Shown here: piece after piece, positions 2,694-35,721 of the stretch
How positions within the stretch are numbered: the stretch's first letter is position 1
How the letters are laid out: each line of letters starts with the position of its first letter
IMG/VR virus record: IMGVR_UViG_2874956758_000001
Length of the DNA: 35,721 nucleotides
Direction: 5' to 3' (one strand)
Source: a virus
Taxonomy: Duplodnaviria; Heunggongvirae; Uroviricota; Caudoviricetes
Notes under the pieces: generated by a model
Seen by the model: the letters and a program-made list of their open reading frames with translations, nothing else
Database searches by the model: none
Told to the model about the DNA's origin: nothing
Position numbers and translations under genes: made by a program

Positions 2694-2965
2694 GTATTCG
2701 TATCGAAATTGGTGAACGTTATGTCGTTACCAGTGACAGCTTTCAGTTTATTCTCCACGAGAAAAAGAGAGCGGAAAGCGGTAAAAACGCCGGTCAGGAA
2801 TGGCTGGCGGTGGTTGGTTATTACCCGAAATTAATCCAGCTCGTTTCCGGCCTGATGCATCACGATATTCTGACCGGAAGCGCAAAGTCTTTTGCTGATT
2901 TAAACGCGCAGGTTGAGCAACTCAGCAAGCGTTGCTCAGAGGCTTTTGGCTCATATGGCCGTTAA
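2690..2965 (+). CDS. Early-operon hypothetical protein (P2 orf83 position)
   Basis: 91-aa ORF overlapping the start of gene A. Confidence 0.5.
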   Translation: MSIRIEIGERYVVTSDSFQFILHEKKRAESGKNAGQEWLAVVGYYPKLIQLVSGLMHHDILTGSAKSFADLNAQVEQLSKRCSEAFGSYGR

Positions 2966-5231
2966 AGCCTCCGGGCGTTTTGTCCCTCCGTCAGCATTTG
3001 CCGCAGGCATCGGTAAGATGTTTACCGGTGCTTATGCATGGAACGCACCACGCGAGGCTGTCGGGCGCGAAAGACCTCTTACACGTGATGAGATGCGTCA
3101 GGTGCAAGGTGTTTTATCCACGATTAACCGCCTGCCTTACTTTTTGCGCTCGCTGTTTACTTCACGCTATGACTACATCAGGCGCAATAAAAGCCCGGTG
3201 CACGGGTTTTATTTCCTCACATCCACTTTTCAGCGTCGTTTATGGCCGCGCATTGAGCGCGTGAATCAGCGCCATGAAATGAACACCGATGCGTCGTTGC
3301 TGTTTCTGGCAGAGCGCGACCAGTATGCGCGCCTGCCGGGAATGAATGACAAGGAGCTGAAAAAGTTTGCTGCCCGTATCTCATCGCAGCTTTTCATGAT
3401 GTATGAGGAACTCTGCGATGCCTGGGTGGATGCGCATGGCGAGAAAGAATCGCTGTTTACGGATGAGGCGCAGGCTCACCTCTATGGTCATGTTGCTGGC
3501 GCTGCACGTGCTTTCAATATTTCCCCTCTCTACTGGAAAAAATACCGTAAAGGACAGATGACCACGAGGCAGGCATATTCTGCCATTGCCCGTCTGTTTA
3601 ACGATGAGTGGTGGACTCATCAGCTTAAAGGCCAGCGTATGCGCTGGCATGAGGCGTTACTGATAGCTGTCGGGGAGGTCAATAAAGACCGTTCTCCTTA
3701 TGCCAGTAAACATGCCATTCGGGATGTGCGTGCGCGCCGCCAGGCAAATCTGGAATTTCTTAAATCGTGTGACCTTGAAAACAGGGAAACCGGCGAGCGC
3801 ATCGACCTTATCAGTAAGGTGATGGGCAGTATTTCTAATCCTGAAATTCGCCGGATGGAGCTGATGAACACCATTGCCGGTATTGAGCGTTACGCCCCCT
3901 CAGAGGGTGATGTGGGGATGTTTATCACGCTTACCGCGCCGTCAAAGTATCACCCGACACGTCAGGTTGGAAAAGGCGAAAATAAAACCGTCCAGCTTAA
4001 TCACGGCTGGAATGATGAGGCATTTAATCCAAAGGATGCGCAGCGTTATCTCTGCCGTATCTGGAGCCTGATGCGCACGGCATTCAAGGATAATGATTTA
4101 CAGGTCTACGGTTTGCGAGTCGTCGAGCCACACCACGACGGAACGCCGCACTGGCATATGATGCTTTTTTGTAATCCACGCCAGCGTAACCAGATTATCG
4201 AAATCATGCATCGCTATGCGCTCAAAGAGGATGGCGACGAAAGAGGAGCCGCGCGAAACCGTTTTCAGGCAAAACACCTTAACCGGGGCGGTGCTGCGGG
4301 ATATATCGCGAAATACATTTCAAAAAATATCGACGGCTATGCACTGGATGGTCAGCTCGATAACGATACCGGCAGACCGCTGAAAGATACTGCGGCGGCT
4401 GTTACCGCATGGGCGTCAACGTGGCGCATCCCGCAATTTAAAACGGTTGGCCTGCCGACAATGGGAGCTTACCGTGAGCTACGTAAATTGCCTCGCGGCG
4501 TCAGCATTGCTGATGAATTTGACGAACGCGTGGAGGCTGCACGCGCCGCCGCAGACAGTGGCGATTTTGCGCTGTATATCAGCGCGCAGGGCGGGGCAAA
4601 TGTCCCGCGCGATTGTCAGACTGTCAGGGTCGCCCGTAGCCCGTCGGATGACGTTAACGAATACGAGGAAGAAGTCGAGAGAGTGGTCGGCATTTACGCG
4701 CCGCATCTCGGCGCGCGTCATATTCATATCACCAGAACGACGGACTGGCGCATTGTGCCGAAAGTGCCGGTCGTTGAACCTTTGACTTTAAAAAGCGGCA
4801 TCGCCGCGCCTCGGAGTCCTGTGAATAACTGTGGAAAGCTCACCGGTGGTGATACTTCGTTACCGGCTCCCACACCTTCTGAGCACGCCGCAGCAGTGCT
4901 TAATCTGATTGATGACGGTGTTATCGAATGGAATGAGCCGGAGGTCGTGAAGGCGCTCCGGGGCGCATTAAAACACGGGCTGAGAACGCCAAACCGTCAG
5001 CAAAGAAACGGAAGCACGTTAAAACCACATGAAATTGCACCATCGGCCAGACTGAGCCGGTCGGAACGATTGCAAATCACCCGTATCCGCGTTGACCTTG
5101 CTCAGAATGGAATCTTGCCCCAGCGATGGGAGCTTGAGGCGCTGGCGCGTGGGGCAACCGTAAATTATGACGGGAAACAATTCACGTATCTGGCTGCTGA
5201 TGAGTGGCCGGGATTCTCAACAAACATATAA
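2955..5231 (+). CDS. A: Replication initiator A (rolling-circle HUH endonuclease)
   Basis: About 758 aa from ATG 2955 (MAVKASG); the ORF is open from 2913. HUH motif PHWHMMLF present; size and position match P2 gpA. Confidence 0.88.
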   Translation: MAVKASGRFVPPSAFAAGIGKMFTGAYAWNAPREAVGRERPLTRDEMRQVQGVLSTINRLPYFLRSLFTSRYDYIRRNKSPVHGFYFLTSTFQRRLWPRIERVNQRHEMNTDASLLFLAERDQYARLPGMNDKELKKFAARISSQLFMMYEELCDAWVDAHGEKESLFTDEAQAHLYGHVAGAARAFNISPLYWKKYRKGQMTTRQAYSAIARLFNDEWWTHQLKGQRMRWHEALLIAVGEVNKDRSPYASKHAIRDVRARRQANLEFLKSCDLENRETGERIDLISKVMGSISNPEIRRMELMNTIAGIERYAPSEGDVGMFITLTAPSKYHPTRQVGKGENKTVQLNHGWNDEAFNPKDAQRYLCRIWSLMRTAFKDNDLQVYGLRVVEPHHDGTPHWHMMLFCNPRQRNQIIEIMHRYALKEDGDERGAARNRFQAKHLNRGGAAGYIAKYISKNIDGYALDGQLDNDTGRPLKDTAAAVTAWASTWRIPQFKTVGLPTMGAYRELRKLPRGVSIADEFDERVEAARAAADSGDFALYISAQGGANVPRDCQTVRVARSPSDDVNEYEEEVERVVGIYAPHLGARHIHITRTTDWRIVPKVPVVEPLTLKSGIAAPRSPVNNCGKLTGGDTSLPAPTPSEHAAAVLNLIDDGVIEWNEPEVVKALRGALKHGLRTPNRQQRNGSTLKPHEIAPSARLSRSERLQITRIRVDLAQNGILPQRWELEALARGATVNYDGKQFTYLAADEWPGFSTNI

Positions 5232-5873: not shown

Positions 5874-6311
5874 CTACATCCCACAGGCCATCAATGGTAA
5901 ATGTTTTTTTTCCTTGAGTTCATCATTTATGCGTTGACATAGGGCTGTTTTGTAATCGCCTTCCCATTGTGTGTGTATCTTCCCTTGAACTCGTTGAAAC
6001 CAAATATCTAACATTTCAGTATTTGGTTGTTTACCTAGTTTACAATGAAGTTGTTGTAACTTGCCAAATTTGAGTTCATCGTCGTCATAAAGGAAGGTCA
6101 AGAGTTTTGCGAAAATAGCCATTCCCACTGGGTAGGTGGTTGGGTTTTTAGCCATGATGCTTGAAACAATTCCAAGCATTGCATCTAGTTGATGCCCACT
6201 ATTTGTGATCTTTTTCTTCCTAAATAATTTTCGCAAGAAACCATTTAAATATCTGACTGTAATTTTGGAGTTTTGATGTTTTAAAGAAAATAAATATATT
6301 GCATACAACAT
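5874..6311 (-). CDS. C-terminal fragment of the Abi-P2-like reverse transcriptase (helical C-terminal domain); frame continues from the upstream RT ORF across an A-run
   Basis: AT-rich 145-aa ORF; its frame is open upstream into the end of the RT ORF, and a third frame continues past its stop to about 5727. Confidence 0.55.
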   Translation of the reverse strand: MLYAIYLFSLKHQNSKITVRYLNGFLRKLFRKKKITNSGHQLDAMLGIVSSIMAKNPTTYPVGMAIFAKLLTFLYDDDELKFGKLQQLHCKLGKQPNTEMLDIWFQRVQGKIHTQWEGDYKTALCQRINDELKEKKHLPLMACGM

Positions 6312-6337
6312 TTTCTGTAGGGAGTTGAACGACCCTT

Positions 6338-7264
6338 CTATAATATATTCTTTTTTGCTGATTTAAGGGAGTGAAGAATGATGTCGTCATGTAGTTCTGT
6401 TTTTCTTGAGTTTAAATCAAGCCCAAACTCACCTAAGACCTCAACCAAACACTTTGAGATTTTGTCCAAATCATCTTTACTGCTTGAAAATATTCGATAA
6501 TCATCTCTGTAGCGAACTACTTTGTAATCCGTTATTTTTTGCTCTTCGGTTTTTTTTCTTAGCTGTAAATCAATTTCGCCTAAAATTAATTCGGCAAATG
6601 TATCCATCAACGTACTACCCAATGGTATTCCGTTTGTCTGATTACTCATCATCATCTGGATATGAGTGTCAATCAATCGTCCTGGGTTATTGTTATTTTC
6701 TTTCTTTTTGGCCTCTTCTTTTGAGATGAATACCCATTCAAAGCTATGAGTGTAAATAGAAGGGTAGAAGTTTGAAATGTCTGTGCTGAACATGAACTCA
6801 TACTCAAGAGCCAATGAAAGACTTTTTTGTTCAAAATCTTCCCACCAGTTTAAAACAGATGCAGCTACGTTTGAGGTGTTCTTTTTGCTCACTGGGGTAC
6901 TTGAGCATAAAAAAAGATCATTAGACTCAAACTCTCTAAATTTATTCCTTATAGCATTCCAGTTGGAAGGGGATGTAATAAGTTTACAAAAATACACGTA
7001 GTACAGAGGATTAATTAGTGTTATTCGTCGCCAGCTATATAAGCCATCTTTGCTGACTAAAACCTCGTAATTTATATTCTTCCCCATCAATGACTTGGAG
7101 TCAGGTTGGAAGTTGATTTTACCTTCATCTATCGCGGAGTTGATTTCTTCAAGCAAGGAAGAAAAATCGACATAACTGGGTAGCTCCAGAGTAGTGTATG
7201 AATCATGCTGCAGAAAATACTTAAGCGCTCTACCAGTAGTTAATTCATAAATCTTTTTCATAAT
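6338..7264 (-). CDS. Reverse transcriptase, Abi-P2 / UG-Abi class (defence-associated RT), N-terminal and catalytic part
   Basis: RT motifs seen directly: FMFSTDISNFYPSIY, GIPLGSTLMDTF, VVRYRDDYRIF (YxDD), LDLNSRKTEL. Probable start MKKIYEL at 7264; the ORF is open to 7387. AT-rich compared with phage core genes. Confidence 0.75.
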   Translation of the reverse strand: MMKKIYELTTGRALKYFLQHDSYTTLELPSYVDFSSLLEEINSAIDEGKINFQPDSKSLMGKNINYEVLVSKDGLYSWRRITLINPLYYVYFCKLITSPSNWNAIRNKFREFESNDLFLCSSTPVSKKNTSNVAASVLNWWEDFEQKSLSLALEYEFMFSTDISNFYPSIYTHSFEWVFISKEEAKKKENNNNPGRLIDTHIQMMMSNQTNGIPLGSTLMDTFAELILGEIDLQLRKKTEEQKITDYKVVRYRDDYRIFSSSKDDLDKISKCLVEVLGEFGLDLNSRKTELHDDIILHSLKSAKKNIL

Positions 7265-7467
7265 TAGTGATTTCTTCTTAAGTTGCGCACAAATAACTAC
7301 CTGTTTTCTATCATGATAACGATGCGAATGCGAGCAATTCAGGAAGTGCATTACTCTGCATCGAAGCGCACGCAAGTCAGAGAACAATAACTGCCTTGCG
7401 ACATCAGGACTGGCGCGCTAGTTGAGTGGTCATGCAACTGCATTAAAACCGCCCCATGAAGCGGGCG

Positions 7468-19256: not shown

Positions 19257-21446
19257 ATGAGCACAAAATTCAAAACCGTTATCACCACTGCCGGTGCAGC
19301 AAAGCTGGCAGCGGCAACCGCACCGGGAGGGCGGAAGGTCAACATTACCACGATGGCCGTCGGGGATGGCGGTGGTAAATTGCCTGTCCCGGATGCCGGA
19401 CAGACCGGGCTTATCCACGAAGTCTGGCGACATACGCTGAACAAAATCAGCCAGGACAAACGAAACAGTAATTATATTATCGCAGAGCTGGTTATTCCGC
19501 CGGAGGTGGGCGGTTTCTGGATGCGTGAGCTTGGCCTGTACGATGATGCGGGAACATTAATTGCCGTGGCGAACATGGCCGAAAGTTATAAGCCAGCTCT
19601 TGCCGAAGGCTCAGGGCGTTCGCAGACCTGTCGCATGGTCATCATCGTCAGCAGTGTGGCCTCAGTGGCGCTGACCATTGACACCACAACGGTGATGGCG
19701 ACGCAGGATTACGTTGATGACAAAATTGCAGAGCATGAACAGTCACGACGTCACCCGGACGCCTCGCTGACCGCAAAAGGTTTTACTCAGTTAAGCAGTG
19801 CGACCAACAGCACGTCTGAAACACTGGCCGCAACGCCGAAAGCGGTAAAGGCCGCCTATGACCTGGCTAACGGGAAATATACCGCACAGGACGCCACCAC
19901 AGCGCGAAAAGGTCTTGTCCAGCTCAGTAGCGTCACCAACAGTGATTCTGAAACGCTGGCTGCAACGCCAAAGGCGGTAAAGGCTGCGTATGACCTTGCT
20001 AACGGGAAATACACTGCACAGGATGCCACCACGGCGCGAAAAGGGCTTGTCCAGCTCAGTAGCGCCACCAACAGTGATTCTGAAACGCTGGCCGCAACAC
20101 CAAAAGCGGTGAAGTCTGCCTATGACAATGCTGAAAAACGTCTTCAGAAAGATCAGAATGGTGCGGATATTCCGGGAAAGGATACCTTCACGAAAAATAT
20201 CGGTGCCTGTCGTGCTTATAGCGGCGCTTTGAGCACTGAAGCCGGAAACTGGACAACCGCTCAGTTTATTGAATGGCTGGATTCCCGTGGTGCATTTAAT
20301 CATCCGTACTGGATGTGCAAAGGCTCCTGGTCATATGCAAATAACAAAATCATTACGGATACCGGATGTGGTGATATCCACCTGGCTGGTTGTGTCGTCG
20401 AGGTCATGGGAACTAAATCTGCAATCACTATCCGAGTGACCACGCCGACAACATCAAGCGGTGGCGGTACAACCAGCGCGCAATTCACTTACATTAATCA
20501 TGGGGACGGCTACTCCCCCGGCTGGCGTCGTGACTGGAATCGTCAGGGCGACTCAATGACCGGAACGATTAATCAGGATGGCGGAAGCCAGAATGCCTAT
20601 ATGTCTACGGCCTTATGTTCAGGCACCAGAGGCGGCAAAAAATATCTCAGAAAGTTTCGTGGTGGAGAAGGAGACACTATCTGGCATGAAACAGTACAGG
20701 GCGGGGTAGTTCGCTGGGCGACTGGTAATACTGATGCTCAGGAAGAATTATCACTCAGCTCCGCTTATGGTCTCCGTTCAAGAGGTGAGATTACATCAAG
20801 CAGTGCTAATGGTCTGCGCATTGCTTATGGCAATTATGGATTCTTTATCAGGAATGATGGCAGCAGCACTTATTTTATGTTGACTAAATCAGGTGACAGA
20901 TTAGGTACTTATAATAATTTAAGACCACTGATTATAAATGATGCCACGGGTGCTGTATCAATGGGGCATGGCCTGAGTGTTACTGGTGATATTGTCTCAA
21001 GTACCAAAGTACGTGCCGGTAGCGGGAAAAAGTTCACGGTCAGCAGCAGCAATACATCCACGAAGGAAGCTGCATTCAATTTGTGGGGAAACTCAAGTCG
21101 TCCGGTGGTGGCTGAATTAGGTGATGATGCAGGCTGGCATTTTTACAGTCAGAGAAATACAGATAACAGCATCACTTTTGCTGTTAACGGGCAGGTATCA
21201 CCATCTAACTATAGTAATTTTGATTCACGCTATGTCCGGGATATCCGGCTTGGTGGTGCTGCCACATACAAACCTGCGAACAATGGCATGACATGGACAC
21301 ATAAGGCACCGTCCGGGTGTGTATATTCCGGCATTATTGTTCAGGATACCGGCTCAAACTCTGCCGATAACATTGGTGGCGTATATTACAGACCGGTGCA
21401 GAAATACATTAACGGGACTTGGTATAACGGTAAGCGTACAGCCTGA
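19257..21446 (+). CDS. H: Tail fibre protein H, with internal tandem repeats and a C-terminus altered by IS66 insertion
   Basis: 729 aa; the N-terminal region is typical of P2-type fibres; the last codons (GKRTA, stop) lie inside the IS66 left inverted repeat. Confidence 0.85.
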   Translation: MSTKFKTVITTAGAAKLAAATAPGGRKVNITTMAVGDGGGKLPVPDAGQTGLIHEVWRHTLNKISQDKRNSNYIIAELVIPPEVGGFWMRELGLYDDAGTLIAVANMAESYKPALAEGSGRSQTCRMVIIVSSVASVALTIDTTTVMATQDYVDDKIAEHEQSRRHPDASLTAKGFTQLSSATNSTSETLAATPKAVKAAYDLANGKYTAQDATTARKGLVQLSSVTNSDSETLAATPKAVKAAYDLANGKYTAQDATTARKGLVQLSSATNSDSETLAATPKAVKSAYDNAEKRLQKDQNGADIPGKDTFTKNIGACRAYSGALSTEAGNWTTAQFIEWLDSRGAFNHPYWMCKGSWSYANNKIITDTGCGDIHLAGCVVEVMGTKSAITIRVTTPTTSSGGGTTSAQFTYINHGDGYSPGWRRDWNRQGDSMTGTINQDGGSQNAYMSTALCSGTRGGKKYLRKFRGGEGDTIWHETVQGGVVRWATGNTDAQEELSLSSAYGLRSRGEITSSSANGLRIAYGNYGFFIRNDGSSTYFMLTKSGDRLGTYNNLRPLIINDATGAVSMGHGLSVTGDIVSSTKVRAGSGKKFTVSSSNTSTKEAAFNLWGNSSRPVVAELGDDAGWHFYSQRNTDNSITFAVNGQVSPSNYSNFDSRYVRDIRLGGAATYKPANNGMTWTHKAPSGCVYSGIIVQDTGSNSADNIGGVYYRPVQKYINGTWYNGKRTA
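19775..20135 (+). repeat. About three tandem copies of a ~120-bp (40 aa) unit inside H (motif SETLAATPKAVKAAYDLANGKYTAQDATTARKGLVQLSS)
   Basis: Near-identical protein and DNA repeats seen directly; this is a common phage tail-fibre repeat motif. Confidence 0.8.
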
Positions 21447-21499
21447 ACCGTCTGGTCAGAATCTGACGAATTAGACAAAGTGGTGTCCACCAATAAGTA

Positions 21500-21901
21500 G
21501 TGGGAACCAAAGTGTCAGATATGCAGAAAAATGTGACTCCCGGCAGGCGAAAAGGCTGCCCTAATTATCCTCCCGAATTTAAACAGCAGCTCGTTGCTGC
21601 CTCCTGTGAACCCGGGATATCCATCTCAAAACTTGCTCTTGAAAATGGCATTAACGCCAATCTGTTGTTCAAATGGCGACAACAATGGCGCGAGGGAAAG
21701 CTGCTATTACCTTCTTCAGAGAGCCCCCAGCTACTTCCTGTGACTCTCGATGCAGCTGCCGAACAGCCAGAATCGCTCGCAGAGGACCCGGAAACCCTCA
21801 GTATCAGCTGTGAGGTAACGTTCCGGCACGGGACGCTCCGCTTCAATGGCAATGTCAGCGAAAAGCTCCTGACTCTGCTGATACAGGAACTGAAGCGATG
21901 A
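21500..21901 (+). CDS. tnpA: IS66-family accessory protein TnpA (HTH)
   Basis: 133-aa first ORF of the element; exact start uncertain. Confidence 0.7.
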   Translation: MGTKVSDMQKNVTPGRRKGCPNYPPEFKQQLVAASCEPGISISKLALENGINANLLFKWRQQWREGKLLLPSSESPQLLPVTLDAAAEQPESLAEDPETLSISCEVTFRHGTLRFNGNVSEKLLTLLIQELKR

Positions 21902-22245
21902 TCCCGTTACCTTCCGGGACCAAAATTTGGCTGGTTGCCGGTATCACCGATATGAGAAATGGCTTCAACGGTCTGGCTGCGAAAGTACAGACGGCGCTGA
22001 AAGACGATCCCATGTCCGGCCATGTTTTCATTTTCCGGGGCCGCAGCGGCAGTCAGGTTAAACTGCTGTGGTCCACCGGTGACGGACTGTGCCTCCTGAC
22101 CAAACGGCTGGAGCGTGGGCGCTTCGCCTGGCCGTCAGCCCGTGATGGCAAAGTGTTCCTTACGCAGGCGCAGCTGGCGATGCTGCTGGAAGGTATCGAC
22201 TGGCGACAGCCTAAGCGGCTGCTGACCTCCCTGACCATGCTGTAA
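21898..22245 (+). CDS. tnpB: IS66-family Orf2 / TnpB
   Basis: 115 aa; start overlaps the tnpA stop; conserved IS66 Orf2-like sequence ([11 protein letters not shown]...[24 protein letters not shown]). Confidence 0.8.
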
Positions 22246-22294
22246 ATCTCTTTATCCTGGTTGTCACAGAATAAGCCCGGTAAAATACGGGCTT

Positions 22295-23827
22295 ATGAAC
22301 GACATCTCTTCTGACGACATCTTCCTGCTGAAACAGCGCCTGGCCGAACAGGAGATCCACGCCCTGCAGGAAAAGCTGAGCAACCGGGAGCGCGAAATAG
22401 ACCATCTGCAGGCGCAGCTGGATAAACTCCGCCGGATGAACTTCGGCAGTCGTTCCGAAAAAGTCTCCCGCCGTATCGCACAAATGGAAGCCGATCTGAA
22501 CCGGCTTCAGAAAGAGAGCGATACGCTGACTGGTAGGGTGTATGACCCGGCAGTACAGCGTCCGTTGCGTCAGACCCGCACCCGTAAGCCGTTCCCTGAA
22601 TCACTACCCCGTGACGAAAAGCGACTGTTGCCTGCGGCGCCGTGCTGCCCGAACTGCGGCGGTTCACTGAGCTATCTGGGCGAGGATACCGCCGAACAGC
22701 TGGAGTTGATGCGTAGTGCCTTCCGGGTTATCCGGACGGTACGGGAAAAACATGCCTGTACTCAGTGCGATGCCATCGTGCAGGCACCTGCACCTTCGCG
22801 GCCCATCGAGCGGGGTATCGCCGGACCGGGGCTGCTGGCCCGCGTGCTGACCTCGAAGTATGCAGAGCACACCCCGCTGTATCGCCAGTCAGAAATATAC
22901 GGCCGGCAAGGTGTGAAGCTGAGCCGTTCACTGCTGTCGGGCTGGGTGGATGCATGCTGCCGGCTGCTGTCTCCGCTGGAAGAGGCGCTTCATGGCTATG
23001 TCATGACTGACGGCAAACTCCATGCTGATGATACCCCGGTCCAGGTACTGATGCCGGGTAATAAGAAGACGAAGACCGGGCGGTTGTGGGCGTATGTTCG
23101 TGATGACCGCAATGCCGGGTCAGCGTTGGCACCTGCAGTGTGGTTCGCTTACAGCCCGGACAGAAAAGGCATCCATCCGCAGACTCATCTTGCTTGCTTC
23201 AGCGGTGTGCTGCAAGCGGATGCGTACGCCGGGTTCAACGAGCTGTACCGCAATGGTGGGATAACGGAAGCTGCCTGCTGGGCTCATGCCCGCCGAAAGA
23301 TCCACGATGTGCACGTCCGCATCCCGTCAGCACTGACGGAAGAAGCCCTGGAGCAGCTCGGTCAGTTGTACGCCATAGAGGCGGATATAAGGGGAATGCC
23401 GGCAGAGCAGCGGCTTGCTGAACGTCAGCGAAAAACGAAACCGCTGTTGAAATCCCTGGAAAGCTGGTTGCGTGAAAAGATGAAGACCCTGTCGCGACAC
23501 TCAGAGTTGGCGAAGGCGTTCGCGTACGCACTTAACCAGTGGCCGGCACTGACGTACTATGCGAACGATGGCTGGGTGGAAATCGACAACAACATCGCTG
23601 AAAATGCCCTGCGGGCGGTCAGTCTGGGTCGTAAAAACTTCCTGTTCTTCGGCTCTGACCATGGTGGTGAGCGGGGAGCGCTACTGTACAGCCTGATCGG
23701 GACGTGCAAACTGAATGACGTGGATCCAGAAAGCTACCTTCGCCATGTGCTTGGCGTCATAGCAGACTGGCCGGTCAACCGGGTCAGCGAACTGCTTCCG
23801 TGGCGCATAGCACTGCCAGCTGAATAA
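22295..23827 (+). CDS. tnpC: IS66-family transposase TnpC
   Basis: 510 aa; N-terminal coiled coil, Cys cluster (CPNCG...CTQC), DDE-type core; ends just inside the right inverted repeat. Confidence 0.85.
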
Positions 23828-23889
23828 CACATCCCCGTCAATACGGCCCTCGCTGTACGCTTACGTATAACGTGGCGCAGGTATAATTT

Positions 23890-24417
23890 ATGCAGCATTT
23901 GATAAATATAACGGCAGGTAATCCAAAAACGGTTGAACAATATCAATTGACAAAGGACTTTGATGTTGTCTGGTTTTTTTCAGAAGATGGTAAGAACTGG
24001 TACGAAGAACAAAAGTATTTTGCTGATGACACGATAAAAATAGCGTGCGACAAAGATAATATTATCCGCTATGTGGAAAAGGATGTGACAGCTATCAGAC
24101 CGGATGGATTAAGTGTTGTTGAAGTGCCGGATATTACTGCTAACCGACGGGCGGACATTTCAGGGAACTGGATGTTTAAGGACGGTACAGTGATTAAACG
24201 CATTTATACGGCAGAGGAATTGCAGCAGCAGGCAGAAAATCGGAAAGCCAGACTTCTTGCAGATGCTGAATCCGTGATTTTGCCGCTGGAGCGCGCTGTC
24301 AGGCTGAATATGGCAACAGATGAGGAGCGCAGTCGACTGGAGGCATGGGAACGCTACAGTGTTCTGGTCAGTCGTGTGGATCCTGCAAATCCTGAATGGC
24401 CGGAAATGCCGCAATAA
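23890..24417 (+). CDS. G: Tail fibre assembly chaperone
   Basis: 175 aa, the size of P2 gpG; now separated from H by the IS66 element. Confidence 0.8.
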
Positions 24418-24509
24418 GTTGTATGAGCTTACATATCTATTGCGTAGAGTAAAGCATAATCTGACAGTCCGCTCTGTGCCAGAAGCGGACATAGCAGGTG
24501 GATTTGCCC

Positions 24510-25415
24510 CTATATTTCCAGACATCTGTTATCACTTAACCCATTACAAGCCCGCTGCCGCAGATATTCCCGTGGCGAGCGATAACCCAGCGCACTATGC
24601 GGATGCCATTCGTTATAATGCTCGAACGCCTCTGCAAGGTTCTTTGCTGCCGTTAACCCGTCTGGTTTGGGCATGATACTGATGTAGTCACGCTTTATCG
24701 TTTTCACGAAGCTCTCTGCTATTCCGTTACTCTCCGGACTCCGCACCGCCGTGTTCTTCGGTTCAAGTCCCAACATCCGGGCGAACTGGCGTGTTTCATT
24801 AGCCCGGTAGCATGAACCATTATCCGTCAGCCACTCCACTGGAGACGACGGAAGATCGTTGCCGAAGCGGCGTTCCACCGCTCCCAGCATGACGTCCTGT
24901 ACTGTTTCACTGTTGAAGCCGCCGGTAGTCACCGCCCAGTGCAGTGCCTCACGATCACAGCAGTCCAGCGCGAACGTGACACGCAGTCTCTCTCCGTTAT
25001 CACAGCAGAACTCGAACCCGTCAGAGCACCATCGCTGATTGCTTTCTTTCACGGCCACTCTGCCTGTATGTGCCCGTTTCGATGGCGGTACAGCAGGTTT
25101 TCGCTCAAGCAACAGCGCATTCTGGCGCATGATCCGGTAAACACGTTTGGCATTGATCGCAGGCATACCATCAAGTTCTGCCTGTCTGCGAAGCAGCGCC
25201 CATACCCGACGATAACCATACGTGGGCAGCTCTCCGATAACATGGTGTATACGGAGAAGCACATCCGTATCATCAGTGTGACGACTGCGGCGGCCATCCA
25301 TCCAGTCATCGGTTCGTCTGAGAATGACGTGCAACTGCGCACGCGACACCCGGAGACAACGGCTGACTAAGCTTACTCCCCATCCCCGGGCAATAAGGGC
25401 GCGTGCGCTATCCAC
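24510..25415 (-). CDS. insD: IS2 transposase OrfB (DDE integrase-like); expressed as an InsCD fusion by -1 frameshift
   Basis: 301 aa, recognised as IS2 InsD. Confidence 0.9.
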
Positions 25416-25738
25416 TTTTTTGCCCGTCCATATTCAACGGCTTCTTTGAGGAGTTCATTTTCCATCGTTTTCTTGCCGAGCAGGCGCTGGAGTTCTTTAA
25501 TCTGCTTCATGGCGGCAGCAAGTTGAGAGGCAGGAACAACCTGTTCTCCGGCGGCCACAGCAGTAAGACTTCCTTCCTGGTATTGCTTACGCCAGAGAAA
25601 TAACTGGCTGGCTGCTACACCATGTTGCCGGGCAACGAGGGAGACCGTCATCCCCGGTTCAAAGCTCTGCTGAACAATTGCGATCTTTTCCTGTGTGGTA
25701 CGCCGTCTGCGTTTCTCCGGCCCTAAGACATCAATCAT
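25373..25738 (-). CDS. insC: IS2 OrfA (HTH regulator)
   Basis: 121 aa from [13 protein letters not shown]; overlaps the insD start. Confidence 0.9.
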
Positions 25739-25901
25739 CTGTTCTCCAATGACTAGTCTAAAAACTAGTATTAAGACTATCACTTATTTAAGTGATACTG
25801 GTTGTCTGGAGATTCAGGGGGCCAGTCTAGCAGGTGCCAGATGCATTTGTTATTCTTCATTGAATTGAGCAGTATCCTTAACAGGAACTCTGAATACATA
25901 A

Positions 25902-26540
25902 ATGAAGATGAAAAACATGTCTGAAGTGTTGACCCAAGAAAAGCTTATTTTTGTTGCCCAGAGACTAAAGGCCCTCGCGCAGTCAGGCCTGACCTATTCA
26001 AAAGACGTCTTTGACAAGGAACGCTATGAAGCCTTGCGTGAAATTGCCGCTGGACTGCTGAGTTCGCAGTTTGATATTAGCCGCAATGATTTGTTTCATG
26101 TATCGGAAACGGGTTACGCGACGCCCAAAACAGATGTGCGTGCGTTTATCCTGCGTAATAATCGTATTCTGATGGTGAAAGAGGCTGCAGATGGATTATG
26201 GAGTCTTCCTGGCGGATGGGCAGATGTTGGAGATACACCTTCTGAAGCTGTGCGTCGAGAGGTCGAAGAAGAAACCGGATTAAAAGTCAGAGTGACTAAA
26301 CTATTGGGAGTTTGGGATCGTAATCTTCACGGCCATCCGCCTTTACCCTGGCATGTTTACAAGCTGATTTTTCTCTGTGAAGAAGTAGGTGGCAGCCTGT
26401 CAATCAGCCATGAGTCACTCGATGCTGATTTTTTTGATGTCAACGACCTGCCTGAATTGTCGCTTTCAAGAATTGTGCCTGAGCAGATTGCTGTCAGCCT
26501 GAGAGTAGCGAAAGGTGATGAAAAAACATGGTTTGATTAA
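25902..26540 (+). CDS. NUDIX hydrolase with an N-terminal helical extension
   Basis: NUDIX box GGWADVGDTPSEAVRREVEEETG (Gx5Ex7REUxEExGU pattern) in the C-terminal half of a 212-aa protein; first gene of a two-gene cassette in the G-FI variable locus. Confidence 0.8.
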   Translation: MKMKNMSEVLTQEKLIFVAQRLKALAQSGLTYSKDVFDKERYEALREIAAGLLSSQFDISRNDLFHVSETGYATPKTDVRAFILRNNRILMVKEAADGLWSLPGGWADVGDTPSEAVRREVEEETGLKVRVTKLLGVWDRNLHGHPPLPWHVYKLIFLCEEVGGSLSISHESLDADFFDVNDLPELSLSRIVPEQIAVSLRVAKGDEKTWFD

Positions 26541-26563
26541 CTTTCTTCTGCAACCATTAAGGA

Positions 26564-27208
26564 ATGGCAATGATATTCAACGCTAAGGGTTTTTTATTCG
26601 ATATGGACGGTACGCTGGTTGATTCAACAGCCGTAGTGGAAAGCGTCTGGAGAGATTTTTGTGCAGAATACGGTCTTGATTCTCAGGCTGTGATTGCTTA
26701 CGCACACGGGCGGCAAACGATTGATACACTAACGCATTTTATTGGTGCAGGTGAGAAAACCAATAAAATCGCGGCCTCACTCGAAGAGGTTGAAATCAAC
26801 ACGACAGAAGGCGTTACTGAAGTAAAAGGGGCCGCTGCACTCTTATCAAAACTGCCACCGGATAGCTGGGCACTTGTCACTTCTGCAGGCAGAATGCTTG
26901 CCGAAAACAGGATGAAAGCGGCTAATCTCCCCTTACCCATAGTAATGGTGTGTGCAGAAGATGTAATGACGGGAAAACCAAGTCCCGAGGGTTACATCAA
27001 AGCAGCTTTGGCTTTGGGCCTTGAGCCTGGTGAATGCGTGGTATTTGAGGATGCATCTGCGGGTATAAAAGCAGGGCTGGCAAGTGGAGCTTCGGTAATA
27101 GCTGTTCAGCCTGACGCTCTGGGATCATCTGAAGCCCATGCCGTCAGCGAACTGTCTGACATTATGGTCAAGATTTCCGGAGAACGTTTCAATATCATCT
27201 GTGGTTAA
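26564..27208 (+). CDS. HAD-superfamily hydrolase (subfamily IA phosphatase / beta-phosphoglucomutase-like)
   Basis: HAD motif I FDMDGTLVDS, motif II LVTSAG, motif IV FEDASAGIKAG; 23 bp downstream of the NUDIX gene. True start may be the second ATG at 26570. Confidence 0.8.
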   Translation: MAMIFNAKGFLFDMDGTLVDSTAVVESVWRDFCAEYGLDSQAVIAYAHGRQTIDTLTHFIGAGEKTNKIAASLEEVEINTTEGVTEVKGAAALLSKLPPDSWALVTSAGRMLAENRMKAANLPLPIVMVCAEDVMTGKPSPEGYIKAALALGLEPGECVVFEDASAGIKAGLASGASVIAVQPDALGSSEAHAVSELSDIMVKISGERFNIICG

Positions 27209-27360
27209 TCACGTTACACAATACGCATCAATGGACGCTGAGTAGTTCGCGAGTTTTAAACTTCCAACGTCCGCTTTTCGCTCCAAGCAGACTGTCAGAT
27301 TTGATAGCGTTTTGGCTATGTAAATTGTCAGTCGGAAAATGAGTGAATACAAATCAGGAC

Positions 27361-27390
27361 AGGCGGGCTGATTGCCCGCCTTTTCTTTAT
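27361..27390 (+). terminator. Rho-independent terminator after the NUDIX-HAD cassette
   Basis: GGCGGGC-TGATT-GCCCGCC hairpin followed by TTTTCTTTAT. Confidence 0.6.
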
Positions 27391-27484
27391 CTGTTGTTTC
27401 ATCCCCTGACCAGCCAGGTCAAATAGCGTCTCATGCTCTGCACAACAGAAAATAGTTGCACCCATTAACCACGGAGTTAAACGG

Positions 27485-28675
27485 ATGAGTGACTATCATC
27501 ACGGCGTGCAGGTGCTGGAGATTAACGACGGCACCCGCGTCATTTCCACCGTATCCACTGCCATTGTCGGCATGGTCTGCACGGCCAGCGATGCGGATGC
27601 GGAAACCTTTCCCCTCAATAAACCTGTGCTGATTACCAATGTGCAGAGCGCAATTGCAAAGGCCGGTAAAAAAGGCACGCTGGCGGCGTCGCTGCAGGCC
27701 ATCGCCGACCAGTCAAAACCGGTCACCGTTGTTGTGCGCGTGGAAGACGGCACCGGCGACGACGAGGAAACGAAACTTGCGCAGACCGTTTCCAATATCA
27801 TCGGCACCACCGACGAAAACGGTCAGTACACCGGACTGAAAGCCCTGCTGGCGGCGGAGTCAGTAACCGGTGTTAAACCGCGTATTCTCGGCGTGCCGGG
27901 ACTGGACACCAAAGAGGTGGCTGTTGCACTGGCATCAGTCTGTCAGAAGCTGCGCGCTTTCGGGTATATCAGCGCATGGGGCTGTAAGACCATTTCCGAG
28001 GTGAAAGCCTACCGCCAGAATTTCAGCCAGCGTGAGCTGATGGTCATCTGGCCGGATTTCCTCGCATGGGATACGGTCACCAGTACCACCGCCACCGCGT
28101 ATGCCACCGCCCGTGCGCTGGGGCTGCGTGCCAGAATCGACCAGGAGCAGGGCTGGCATAAAACGTTGTCCAACGTCGGGGTAAATGGTGTTACCGGCAT
28201 CAGCGCATCTGTATTCTGGGATTTGCAGGAGTCCGGTACCGATGCTGACCTGCTTAACGAGTCAGGCGTCACTACGCTGATTCGCCGCGACGGTTTCCGC
28301 TTCTGGGGTAACCGTACCTGCTCTGATGACCCGCTGTTCCTCTTTGAAAACTACACCCGCACCGCGCAGGTGCTGGCCGACACGATGGCTGAGGCGCACA
28401 TGTGGGCGGTGGACAAGCCCATCACCGCAACGCTGATTCGCGACATCGTTGACGGCATCAATGCCAAATTTCGTGAGCTGAAAACAAACGGCTATATCGT
28501 GGATGCGACCTGCTGGTTCAGCGAAGAATCCAACGATGCGGAAACTCTTAAGGCCGGAAAACTGTATATCGACTACGACTATACCCCGGTTCCTCCTCTT
28601 GAAAACCTGACCCTGCGCCAGCGTATTACCGATAAATACCTGGCAAATCTGGTCACCTCGGTTAACAGCAATTAA
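27485..28675 (+). CDS. FI: Tail sheath protein
   Basis: 396 aa, the size and position of P2 gpFI. Confidence 0.9.
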   Translation: MSDYHHGVQVLEINDGTRVISTVSTAIVGMVCTASDADAETFPLNKPVLITNVQSAIAKAGKKGTLAASLQAIADQSKPVTVVVRVEDGTGDDEETKLAQTVSNIIGTTDENGQYTGLKALLAAESVTGVKPRILGVPGLDTKEVAVALASVCQKLRAFGYISAWGCKTISEVKAYRQNFSQRELMVIWPDFLAWDTVTSTTATAYATARALGLRARIDQEQGWHKTLSNVGVNGVTGISASVFWDLQESGTDADLLNESGVTTLIRRDGFRFWGNRTCSDDPLFLFENYTRTAQVLADTMAEAHMWAVDKPITATLIRDIVDGINAKFRELKTNGYIVDATCWFSEESNDAETLKAGKLYIDYDYTPVPPLENLTLRQRITDKYLANLVTSVNSN

Positions 28676-34359: not shown

Positions 34360-35721
34360 TCACTTACCGTGGGGGTTACGCGTGGTTTCCCCGGAGAAAT
34401 TACGCATCAGCAGCGCGTAATTTAGCTCAAGATCCTGCGGCACCGGGATCCACACAGTATAACCATCGCCTGGTGCGACCGGCATAGCTTCACCTTTGGC
34501 GTTTTCCATGTGCTCAAGGGTAAAGTTAATGTTGCCTTGCGGCGTCATCAGCTCAAGGCTGTCGCCAACGGAGAATTTATTTTTCACCGCTACCGCCGCG
34601 AGGTCGCCCTTGCGCTCACCGGTAAACTCACCAACAAACTGCTGGCGGTCAGAAACTGAATAACCGTATTCGTAGTTCTGATAATCGTCGTGAGTATGAC
34701 GACGCAGGAAACCTTCGGTATAGCCACGATGCGCCAGACCTTCCAGAGTTTCCAGCAGGCTGGTATCGAATGGTTTTCCCGCAGCTGCGTCATCGATAGC
34801 TTTACGGTAAACCTGCGCGGTGCGTGCGCAATAGTAGAAAGATTTGGTACGGCCTTCGATTTTCAGCGAATGCACGCCCATTTTGGTCAGGCGTTCTACA
34901 TGGGCGATGGCGCGCAGATCTTTCGAGTTCATGATGTAAGTGCCGTGCTCATCTTCAAACGCGGTCATATACTCGCCCGGACGCTGGGCCTCTTCGATCA
35001 TAAACACTTTGTCGGTTGGTGCGCCGATACCCAGCGTCGGCTCAACATTTTGCACCGGAATCGGCTCGTACTTGTGTACGATGTTGCCAACGTCATCTTC
35101 TTTCCCTTCCTGGACGTTGTACTCCCAGCGGCAGGCGTTGGTGCAGGTGCCCTGGTTCGGGTCGCGCTTGTTGATATAGCCAGAGAGCAGGCAGCGACCG
35201 GAGTAGGCCATGCACAGCGCACCGTGAACGAAGATCTCGATCTCCATATCCGGCACCTGATTGCGGATCTCTTCAATCTCTTCCAGCGACAGCTCGCGAG
35301 AGAGGATCACGCGGGTCAGTCCCATTTGCTGCCAGAATTTCACCGTCGCCCAGTTCACGGCGTTAGCCTGTACCGAGAGATGGATCGGCATTTCAGGGAT
35401 GTGCTCGCGCACCAGCATAATCAGCCCTGGATCGGACATAATCAGCGCATCCGGCCCCATTTCCACCACCGGTTTCAGGTCACGGATAAAGGTTTTCAGC
35501 TTGGCGTTGTGCGGTGCAATGTTGACCACGACATAAAACTTTTTCCCCAGCGTGTGGGCTTCATTGATGCCGAGCTGAAGATTTTCGTGGTTAAATTCGT
35601 TGTTGCGCACACGTAGGGAGTAACGTGGCTGGCCCGCATAAACAGCATCTGCGCCATAAGCGAAAGCGTAACGCATATTTTTCAGCGTTCCCGCCGGGGA
35701 AAGGAGTTCCGGTTTAAACAT
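34360..35721 (-). CDS. yegQ: Host U32-family peptidase-like protein YegQ (tRNA hydroxylation protein TrhP)
   Basis: 453 aa, recognised as E. coli YegQ; complete within the window, start codon at 35719-35721. In E. coli K-12 this gene neighbours a cryptic P2 remnant (ogrK, yegZ). Confidence 0.85.
   Translation of the reverse strand: MFKPELLSPAGTLKNMRYAFAYGADAVYAGQPRYSLRVRNNEFNHENLQLGINEAHTLGKKFYVVVNIAPHNAKLKTFIRDLKPVVEMGPDALIMSDPGLIMLVREHIPEMPIHLSVQANAVNWATVKFWQQMGLTRVILSRELSLEEIEEIRNQVPDMEIEIFVHGALCMAYSGRCLLSGYINKRDPNQGTCTNACRWEYNVQEGKEDDVGNIVHKYEPIPVQNVEPTLGIGAPTDKVFMIEEAQRPGEYMTAFEDEHGTYIMNSKDLRAIAHVERLTKMGVHSLKIEGRTKSFYYCARTAQVYRKAIDDAAAGKPFDTSLLETLEGLAHRGYTEGFLRRHTHDDYQNYEYGYSVSDRQQFVGEFTGERKGDLAAVAVKNKFSVGDSLELMTPQGNINFTLEHMENAKGEAMPVAPGDGYTVWIPVPQDLELNYALLMRNFSGETTRNPHGK

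Follow-up and report, generated by a model that had tools for sequence, protein, structure and literature searches.

A hairpin-bounded NUDIX-HAD gene cassette in the G-FI cargo slot of a P2-like prophage

What occupies the space between the tail-fibre assembly gene G and the sheath gene FI of a P2-like prophage, where does the inserted DNA begin and end, and what could it do for the phage or its host? The locus considered here lies in IMG/VR record IMGVR_UViG_2874956758_000001, a P2-like prophage; this whole stretch of 35,721 nucleotides (nt) is called the window, and all coordinates refer to it unless a contig is named. Between G and FI it carries an open reading frame (ORF) for a NUDIX hydrolase (ORF1) followed by one for a HAD-family phosphatase (ORF2), which together we call the NUDIX-HAD cassette. 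A preliminary description, made from the sequence alone, had read the pair as a compact operon with its own terminator in a known cargo position. The cargo position stands: P2 carries fun(Z) there, annotated as a lysogenic conversion gene that blocks T5. Once an inserted IS2 element is removed, the cassette is a discrete, horizontally mobile unit of 1,490 bp between two 24-nt hairpins. The following features define the locus; Pfam profiles were run on the ORFs of the window, and protein lengths are in amino acids (aa).

23890-24417, plus strand: gene G, tail-fibre assembly, left backbone flank (Pfam Caudo_TAP, E = 1.5e-33)
24467-24490, plus strand: left hairpin, GTCCGCTCTGTGCCAGAAGCGGAC, starting with the first base of the mobile unit; predicted RNA fold of -13.2 kcal/mol
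24499-25829, minus strand: IS2, complete, 1,331 bp (InsC, 25373-25783; InsD, 24510-25415; Pfam HTH_Tnp_1 and rve/rve_3)
25902-26540, plus strand: ORF1, predicted NUDIX hydrolase, 212 aa (Pfam Nudix_N, residues 14-61, E = 7.6e-18; NUDIX, residues 77-184, E = 7.9e-19)
26564-27208, plus strand: ORF2, predicted HAD-IA phosphatase, HxpA/YfbT-like, 214 aa (Pfam HAD_2, E = 5.6e-22; Hydrolase, E = 2.4e-16)
27269-27292, plus strand: right hairpin, GTCCGCTTTTCGCTCCAAGCAGAC, ending with the last base of the mobile unit
27485-28675, plus strand: sheath gene FI, right backbone flank (Pfam Phage_sheath_1, Phage_sheath_1C and Gp18_domIII_N)

Boundaries and distribution of the cassette

Both ends of the unit were placed by comparison with copies in other backbones. 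Similarity to a lambdoid copy (L002) and to a copy at gpA-gpQ (L019) starts exactly at position 24467, with the flanks diverging immediately outside, and it stops at the right hairpin, the 3' stem of which tracks the backbone (CCAAGCAGAC, CAAAGCGGAC or CACAGCGGAG). The segment shared in every context runs from the first base of GTCCGCTyTGTGCCAGAAGCGGAC to the last base of GTCCGCTTTTCGCTC...GC(A/G)GA(C/G). The left hairpin pattern has one exact match in the window, where 0.05 would be expected by chance. The inverted-repeat arms (24458-24499 and 27260-27301) match the annotated repeats of AJ512683, and the unit, lying between G and FI with a left and a right inverted-repeat hairpin at its flanks, has the form of P2 Z-region (G-FI) cargo. 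An integron attC origin of the hairpins was considered but looks unlikely: inspection by eye showed no attC-like R/L boxes, and the hairpins have no linked integrase.

The same pair occurs in other prophages, where the preliminary description had proposed to look for it. Peduovirus P24C9 and phage 10W carry both genes in the G-FI slot at 99.6% identity. Among 5,426 complete Escherichia coli genomes, 22 hold the unit (19 in full and 3 in part); every match ends at window position 27293, and none lies in the P2 backbone. Contexts examined among these copies are Qin-like lambdoid prophages, in which the unit has a DUF977 gene on one side and hokD on the other; the end of a degraded prophage beside paoCD; and an island that also holds an ankyrin-repeat gene and an integrase and in which the HAD gene is truncated. 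An origin as an E. coli housekeeping operon was rejected, given the small number of genomes and contexts that are always mobile. Nine IMG/VR contigs carry the unit, none of them in the G-FI context: eight have a lambdoid backbone, and the ninth (2698536335_000014, the L019 copy) holds it between gpA/DinI and the portal gene, that is, in the gpA-gpQ hotspot. DNA identity exceeds 99% in at least five contexts. The G+C content of the cassette is 44-50%, against 55-60% for the tail genes, and no copy was found in the plasmid collection.

The gpA-gpQ interval is the defence hotspot described by Rousset et al. 2022 (PMC9122126), and the cassette found there in contig 2698536335_000014 is identical. 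Its survey covered gpA-gpQ and not the G-FI slot, and a search of its main text and of the supplementary files consulted gave no NUDIX+HAD system for P2-like phages. A global survey of P2-like viruses (PMC13100340) does not mention NUDIX, and a literature search by accession for P24C9, 10W and phage 11W returned nothing relevant. In L019 (7062-9283), three co-oriented ORFs without a Pfam match (377, 142 and 215 aa) come after the NUDIX-HAD pair and before the portal gene; these may be another accessory system.

The order of the locus had been given as G, cassette and FI. This order holds; G is not adjacent to the pair, however, since a complete IS2 of 1,331 bp had been overlooked between them. 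The element is flanked by a 5-bp target duplication, GCAGG, at 24494-24498 and 25830-25834 and has terminal inverted repeats at 24507-24539 and 25788-25820. It is inserted 8 bp inside the left cassette hairpin, splits the cassette leader and ends 72 bp upstream of the first NUDIX ATG. With IS2 removed, the window is collinear with P24C9 and phage 10W, and none of the cassette-bearing matches in the complete E. coli genomes reaches the end of IS2. It is a later insertion and no part of the original cassette.

A further correction concerns the terminator that had been assigned to the operon.

27361-27389, plus strand: intrinsic-terminator-like hairpin with a T-run (terminator scan), in the P2 backbone and outside the mobile unit

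The hairpin is real, but its sequence is conserved in P2-like phages whatever their cargo, and it is therefore not the cassette's own. The region from 27266 to 27484 is about 94% conserved among P2-like phages that carry other cargo. The terminator precedes the FI late promoter region, and its P2 equivalent stands just upstream of the annotated pF activator site. An Rfam search over 23800-27600 gave zero matches.

On the P2 backbone only, the 9 nt immediately outside the hairpins (24458-24466 and 27293-27301; AATCTGACA and TGTCAGATT) are mutually complementary, and an empty P2 site would therefore form a single long stem-loop with a T-rich tract behind it. When the two ends are joined as a hybrid, the fold is -21 kcal/mol. 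This arrangement suggests that the loop of a former operon terminator is where cargo is inserted.

The same hairpins enclose other cargo

The left hairpin (GTCCGCTnTGTGCCAGAAGCGGAC) and the right hairpin (GTCCGCTyyTCGCTCAAAGCrGAC) have conserved loops, and together they enclose at least 11 unrelated types of cargo in IMG/VR phage contigs. A left hairpin was found in 40 IMG/VR contigs, 22 of which have a right-type hairpin 0.4-4 kb downstream (the loci with hairpins are L025-L063, L003, L005 and L144). Searched with PADLOC, hairpin-bounded cargo included PD-T7-1 (E = 3.8e-83), NsnA/PD-T4-2_A (E = 2e-56), a SIR2-like fragment and one protein, resembling RelA/SpoT by eye, that weakly matches the candidate model PDC-S33. 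Other hairpin-bounded cargo gave no PADLOC hit, including a GGACT (gamma-glutamyl cyclotransferase-like) protein and, by eye, small membrane proteins.

The classical T5-exclusion gene of P2 belongs to this series. In the P2 Z region (AJ512683 and related records), fun(Z) lies in the same G-FI slot as the NUDIX-HAD cassette and between the same left and right hairpins, in degenerate copies; unlike the cassette, it is on the opposite strand and encodes a single 528-aa protein that blocks T5. Site-specific recombination at the P2 Z region was reportedly proposed by Nilsson and colleagues in 2004. In the literature that we searched, no description of a hairpin-bounded cassette architecture was found, although GenBank records of the Z region do annotate the repeats.

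At four loci, a right hairpin, an 18-nt spacer and a left hairpin follow one another, which suggests tandem arrays of cassettes. Movement by a recombinase acting in trans and short-homology exchange through phage recombinases are both possibilities. The hairpins common to the cassette, fun(Z) and the PD-T7-1-, NsnA/PD-T4-2- and SIR2-like units suggest a simple signature of cargo exchange. Such exchange would link unrelated temperate phages with one another and with chromosomes, and the signature could serve in mining for new accessory and defence genes and in examining the refilling of phage hotspots.

The NUDIX protein belongs to the CDP-Chase/UDP-X diphosphatase family

The preliminary description had recognized a clear NUDIX box with an N-terminal helical extension, and the Pfam matches to NUDIX and Nudix_N bear this out. 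Profile comparisons further place ORF1, as judged from its sequence, in the Nudix_N/CDP-Chase/UDP-X diphosphatase family. In the Protein Data Bank (PDB), ORF1 matches 3q1p/6nch over residues 19-204 (E = 7.2e-50), 3o8s (E = 4e-42) and 4hfq (E = 2e-37). The first of these is CDP-Chase of Bacillus cereus (PDB 3Q1P, 3Q4I and 6NCH), which shares with ORF1 near-full-length similarity, length class and the HLH, YxTP and LPxLS motifs described next; the last is the UDP-X diphosphatase SP_1669 of Streptococcus pneumoniae (PDB 4HFQ), of the same family.

Duong-Ly et al. 2013 (PMC3655063) define the family by an N-terminal helix-loop-helix (HLH) motif, a YxTP hinge, an LPxLS motif and a special Nudix box, in proteins of 200-210 aa with a helical domain at the N terminus and a Nudix domain at the C terminus. 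ORF1 has this length and order of domains (207-212 aa, Nudix_N followed by NUDIX). Its HLH motif, G29-L-T-Y-S-K-D-V-F-D-K-E-R-Y42, agrees with the pattern G-U-x-ar-x2-D-x-ar-D-x-[ED]-R-ar, the hinge is Y72-A-T-P75, and LPxLS is present as L183-P-E-L-S187. The Nudix box (G105-x5-D111-x7-R119-E-V-x-E-E-x-G-L127; nt 26214-26282) was compared with the family signature G-ar-sm-[ED]-U-x2-[ST]-x2-E-x3-K-E-U-x-E-E-x-G-U, in which a Tyr/Lys pair replaces the canonical Glu/Arg. As G105-WADVGDTPSEAVRREVEEETGL127, it fits except that R119 stands where the signature has K, and D111 where the family has Y; its pair is therefore nearer to the canonical Nudix box than to the family Tyr/Lys.

ORF1 thus differs from CDP-Chase and SP_1669, Gram-positive enzymes with Tyr/Lys, in its D111/R119 and also in being partnered by a HAD phosphatase. 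It comes from Gram-negative Enterobacterales and their phages, whereas the CDP-Chase/UDP-Xase family has been described as Gram-positive only.

Translation of ORF1 probably begins at 25917, which would give a protein of 207 aa, and that of the HAD gene at 26570; we prefer these starts because of Shine-Dalgarno spacing and the existence of 207-aa and 212-aa homologues. The NUDIX gene of the E. coli phages has two additional in-frame ATGs upstream of the start kept in the 207-aa homologues, and the CAGGA Shine-Dalgarno sequence is lost.

The HAD protein is a relative of HxpA/YfbT

That ORF2 is a HAD-family phosphatase with a DxDGT motif was likewise confirmed. Motif I reads F-D13-M-D15-G-T17 (FDMDGT), and the catalytic residues D13/D15, T106, K138 and E162-D163 are invariant across 13 homologues (alignment A1). 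Motifs I-IV and a TIGR01509 (HAD-SF-IA-v3) score of 59.6 against a cut-off of 29.4 assign the protein to HAD subfamily IA. Against the HxpA/YfbT equivalog model (NCBIfam NF008610, PRK11587), it scores 189.2 bits, below the cut-off of 282, and shares 49% identity with HxpA of E. coli K-12 over 183 aa. On these scores, ORF2 is best described as a related member of the HxpA/YfbT subfamily, not an equivalog. Its closest PDB match is the yeast glycerol-3-phosphatase 2qlt (GPP1; E = 1.7e-22).

The protein thus shares the HAD-IA fold class and all catalytic motifs with HxpA (YfbT), a hexitol/sugar-phosphate phosphatase, and with GPP1; unlike HxpA, it is a paralogue carried by phages in company with a NUDIX gene. 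A scan of genome contigs with generic patterns from the HAD alignment returned, among the matches listed, distant HADs only (at most 53% identity; Streptomyces, Pseudomonas and Rhizobia). The second ATG of ORF2, at 26570, is probably the true start (212 aa, as in RefSeq), because an AAGGA Shine-Dalgarno sequence abuts the first ATG.

Candidate substrates

What the two enzymes would do together can be approached through their relatives. Known activities of the NUDIX family are hydrolysis of CDP-choline and hydrolysis, with millimolar Km, of UDP-MurNAc(-Ala) and UDP-glucose (PMC3655063). The characterized members are asymmetric homodimers with two different active sites (PMC3655063). In the first of two predicted steps, the NUDIX enzyme would cleave the pyrophosphate bond of a nucleoside diphosphate-X compound (NDP-X) to a nucleoside monophosphate and X-phosphate; by family, the substrate would most likely be a pyrimidine-nucleotide-activated sugar, polyol or alcohol. 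In the second, the HxpA/YfbT-like HAD-IA enzyme would remove the phosphate from X-phosphate and so make the breakdown irreversible. Our guess is that a sugar- or polyol-phosphate phosphatase as partner is chemically coherent with CDP-polyols or UDP-sugars.

The preliminary description had favoured other substrates. It suggested that the combined chemistry would suit destruction of a nucleotide-derived signal or an ADP-ribose/NAD-related metabolite; on this reading (ADP-ribose to AMP and ribose-5-phosphate, and the latter to ribose), the pair would act as counter-defence during lytic growth or as a defence effector. The chemistry is possible, HxpA/YfbT being the nearest characterized HAD, and E. 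coli HxpA/YfbT is said, in work of Kuznetsova and colleagues from 2006, to accept ribose-5-phosphate. Read-through during lytic growth is plausible as well, given that the cassette has the orientation of the upstream lytic operon in each of the three phage contexts, with neither a strong promoter nor a strong terminator intervening. Phage Nudix domains have also been proposed to counter signals derived from ADP-ribose; those clades (T4 NudE type and NadM type), however, are other families (PMC9503650). The family of ORF1 lends this proposal no support. Its characterized members prefer CDP-choline and UDP-X (PMC3655063), and the Streptococcus suis protein 3O8S, although deposited as an "ADP-ribose pyrophosphatase", showed weak activity on Ap5U and Gp5G alone in a screen of 74 compounds that included ADP-ribose and cADP-ribose, its authors concluding that the real substrate is unknown (PMC5158307). 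ORF1 itself scores far below the NCBIfam equivalog cut-offs for NAD diphosphatase (27.9 against 158 bits) and for NudE/ADP-compound hydrolase (19 against 169 bits), and the name "ADP-ribose pyrophosphatase YjhB" found in databases is a generic COG label. We consider an ADP-ribose or NAD substrate improbable.

Still more improbable, in our estimate, is that the NUDIX enzyme acts on phage or host RNA (Np(n)N caps) or on alarmones (Ap4A), with the HAD enzyme trimming phosphorylated products. Both characterized members of the family are 3'-5' RNA exonucleases stimulated by NDP-X binding, and the S. suis activity on Ap5U and Gp5G points the same way; yet the reported RNase rates are very low (kcat of at least 0.29 per min; PMC3655063), an HxpA-like sugar/polyol phosphatase has no obvious RNA role, and no RNA-binding domain is present.

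Chromosomal relatives and co-inheritance of the two genes

Diverged copies of the pair occur in non-phage DNA of other Enterobacterales, with the following protein identities and neighbours.

L015: NUDIX 92% and HAD 89% identity; beside SDR, epimerase and biotin-carboxylase genes
L014: NUDIX 88% and HAD 84% identity; beside AraC and MFS genes, with a GGACT gene directly upstream
L012/L013: NUDIX 80% and HAD 72% identity; in an integrase-bearing island beside yggX-mltC

The right hairpin is present in L014 and L015, and L015 also has a right-then-left hairpin junction upstream. In L005, a chromosomal NUDIX-only unit lies between a left and a right hairpin; hairpins are absent around the more distant chromosomal genes. 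For some neighbours of the pair in L012, L014 and L015, exact matching of flanking proteins returned names of Enterobacteriaceae, Klebsiella, Enterobacter and Pantoea type. Stand-alone NUDIX homologues, 65-84% identical, were found in Cedecea, Pseudescherichia vulneris, Leclercia, Enterobacter, Kluyvera, Pantoea and Sodalis. Had the pair been a host housekeeping operon with a known metabolic role, the preliminary description would have withdrawn its proposal. A diverged chromosomal operon does exist in other Enterobacterales; no known metabolic role attaches to it.

Two gene arrangements among these relatives deserve mention. In L014 (6872-8723), the pair is part of a three-gene unit consisting of the left hairpin, GGACT, NUDIX, HAD and the right hairpin. 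The GGACT protein is 92.6% identical to one that forms its own hairpin-bounded unit in a phage contig (L027, 6924-7519), and either the three genes are functionally linked or two cassettes have fused. In P. vulneris, a 199-aa ORF without a Pfam hit lies 31 bp upstream of the stand-alone NUDIX gene in three independent contigs (L009-L011, 6371-6970) and may be an alternative partner gene.

Where the pair occurs, it is kept close. The two genes had been described as 23 bp apart, which is exactly the gap in the window (26541-26563, both genes in the same orientation), and in six independent backbones the spacing is 23-29 bp at 72-100% protein identity. The ratio of nonsynonymous to synonymous rates (dN/dS) is 0.09-0.18 for both genes (0.09-0.17 for ORF1 and 0.11-0.18 for ORF2), and synonymous divergence (dS) is alike for the two in each comparison (0.22 and 0.29; 0.57 and 0.52). 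From the low dN/dS and matching dS, we conclude that the NUDIX and HAD genes have been co-inherited under purifying selection. The pair would have arisen as a chromosomal operon of Enterobacterales and then become a hairpin-bounded cassette, which would now move among accessory slots: P2 G-FI, P2/186 gpA-gpQ, and the interval between lambdoid replication genes and hokD.

These relatives raise the alternative that an enterobacterial house-cleaning pair was merely caught between recombination-prone hairpins and is a passenger of little or no selective value. Orthologous NUDIX genes do stand alone in normal chromosomal neighbourhoods, the non-phage copies of the pair lie beside SDR, epimerase, AraC and MFS genes, and other hairpin-bounded cargo (GGACT) looks metabolic too; the rarity of the unit in E. 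coli, several decayed copies and the absence of plasmid copies fit as well. On the other side, the nearly identical copies (over 99%) in at least five unrelated contexts speak for spread that was recent and repeated, purifying selection acts on both genes, and the occupied slots and sister cassettes are rich in validated defence genes. We think it rather unlikely that the cassette is such a passenger.

Leader and expression

The cassette has a short leader, which IS2 has split.

25835-25901, plus strand: cassette leader, with a weak extended -10-like element, TGTTATTCT, at 25847-25855

The element is kept as TGTTAYTNT in the leaders of L015 and L005 (relaxed scan and leader comparison) and is a putative promoter. 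In all phage contexts, the cassette genes are co-oriented with the upstream phage operon.

A possible role in phage-host conflict

We propose, at about even confidence, that the unit is a mobile cassette for two-step NDP-X hydrolysis with a likely benefit in phage-host conflict. By draining one activated precursor or nucleotide, it might hinder a superinfecting phage, through an altered surface glycan or a missing precursor. A role in phage-host conflict is plausible because of the co-cargo of the same hairpins, the slots that the cassette occupies and the precedent of Brc167.

This precedent also dates the earlier remark that a NUDIX+HAD pair was not recognized as a named defence or counter-defence system. 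The integron cassettes brc167/brc167.2, to which their authors ascribe NUDIX hydrolase and nucleotidase activities, were reported to give E. coli protection from P1 and a mild effect against phi80 induction (bioRxiv 10.1101/2024.07.02.601719). As in the NUDIX-HAD cassette, a NUDIX ORF is followed by a HAD ORF (supplementary sequence) in a small mobile cassette. The Brc167 NUDIX, however, is short and lacks Nudix_N, the Brc167 HAD resembles by eye a YjjG-type nucleotidase, and the carriers are attC/IntI integron cassettes, as opposed to left/right hairpin units in phages. The unit can be described as accessory cargo of temperate phages that combines NUDIX and HAD chemistry, and the pair is neither phage-specific nor functionally unprecedented.

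Several observations weigh against the proposed two-step cassette with a benefit in conflict. Brc167 is not orthologous: tblastn aligns the Nudix box alone (29% identity over 48 aa), and no hit was obtained with the HAD. PADLOC-DB 2.0 returned for the cassette only a generic NUDIX match to the candidate PDC-S07 (E = 6.6e-10) and nothing for the HAD. Relatives of ORF1 have millimolar Km values and an unknown physiological substrate, and one had no good substrate among 74 compounds (PMC3655063, PMC5158307). Close NUDIX homologues are stand-alone chromosomal genes in Cedecea, Pseudescherichia and Leclercia, and the diverged pair sits in non-defence neighbourhoods in non-phage Enterobacterales DNA. 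A sigma-70 promoter scan at default stringency found no consensus promoter, a relaxed scan found only the weak extended -10, and IS2 here separates the cassette from the upstream H-G late operon. The cassette is also rare in E. coli, in 22 of the 5,426 complete genomes, and about one in five copies is damaged. In phage 11W (L004, 2001-3506), the cassette survives as a heavily decayed remnant; the HAD gene is truncated in H20 and H21, with matches in two pieces covering 73% of the query; and in H22 the HAD gene alone is left. For H13, truncation of the NUDIX gene is suggested by the annotation of the feature at its NUDIX part, "NUDIX hydrolase N-terminal domain-containing protein".

A bolder form of the proposal is possible, if doubtful. 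In this form, the two enzymes would make up a new anti-phage or anti-defence system that irreversibly breaks down a single nucleotide-activated compound, such as a CDP-polyol or UDP-sugar on which a phage receptor or the modification of phage DNA depends. The pair would be carried by a largely undescribed hairpin exchange system through which defence genes pass between P2-like phages, lambdoid phages and enterobacterial chromosomes, and the hairpins could in that case be beacons for new systems. Should the cassette affect infection, it would represent a purely catabolic prophage immunity that depletes a small molecule with a pyrophosphatase and a phosphatase, with no nuclease, pore or NADase, and it would supply a physiological role for a Nudix family of which the real substrate has been unknown since 2011.

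Other features of the prophage

The remainder of the window is that of a P2-like prophage, with the tube gene FII among its P2-like parts.

2913-5231: gpA
Minus strand: portal and terminase genes
19257-21446: tail fibre gene H

An IS66-family element at 21430-23864 comprises three ORFs (HTH_Tnp_1, TnpB_IS66 and DDE_Tnp_IS66) and has what looks like an 8-bp target duplication. The insertion, some 15-20 nt ahead of the stop codon of gene H, alters the C terminus of H and parts H from G. The prophage is probably defective. The gpA-gpQ hotspot of the window (5874-7387, minus strand) holds an AbiP2-type reverse transcriptase in two ORFs, of which the 349-aa ORF covers profile positions 4-304 (E = 1.7e-120) and the 145-aa ORF positions 319-439; the gene is probably frameshifted, given its two ORFs. 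At the right end, a peptidase U32 family gene (34360-35721, minus strand), truncated by the window, is probably the bacterial flank of the prophage, and we take it to be yegQ-like.

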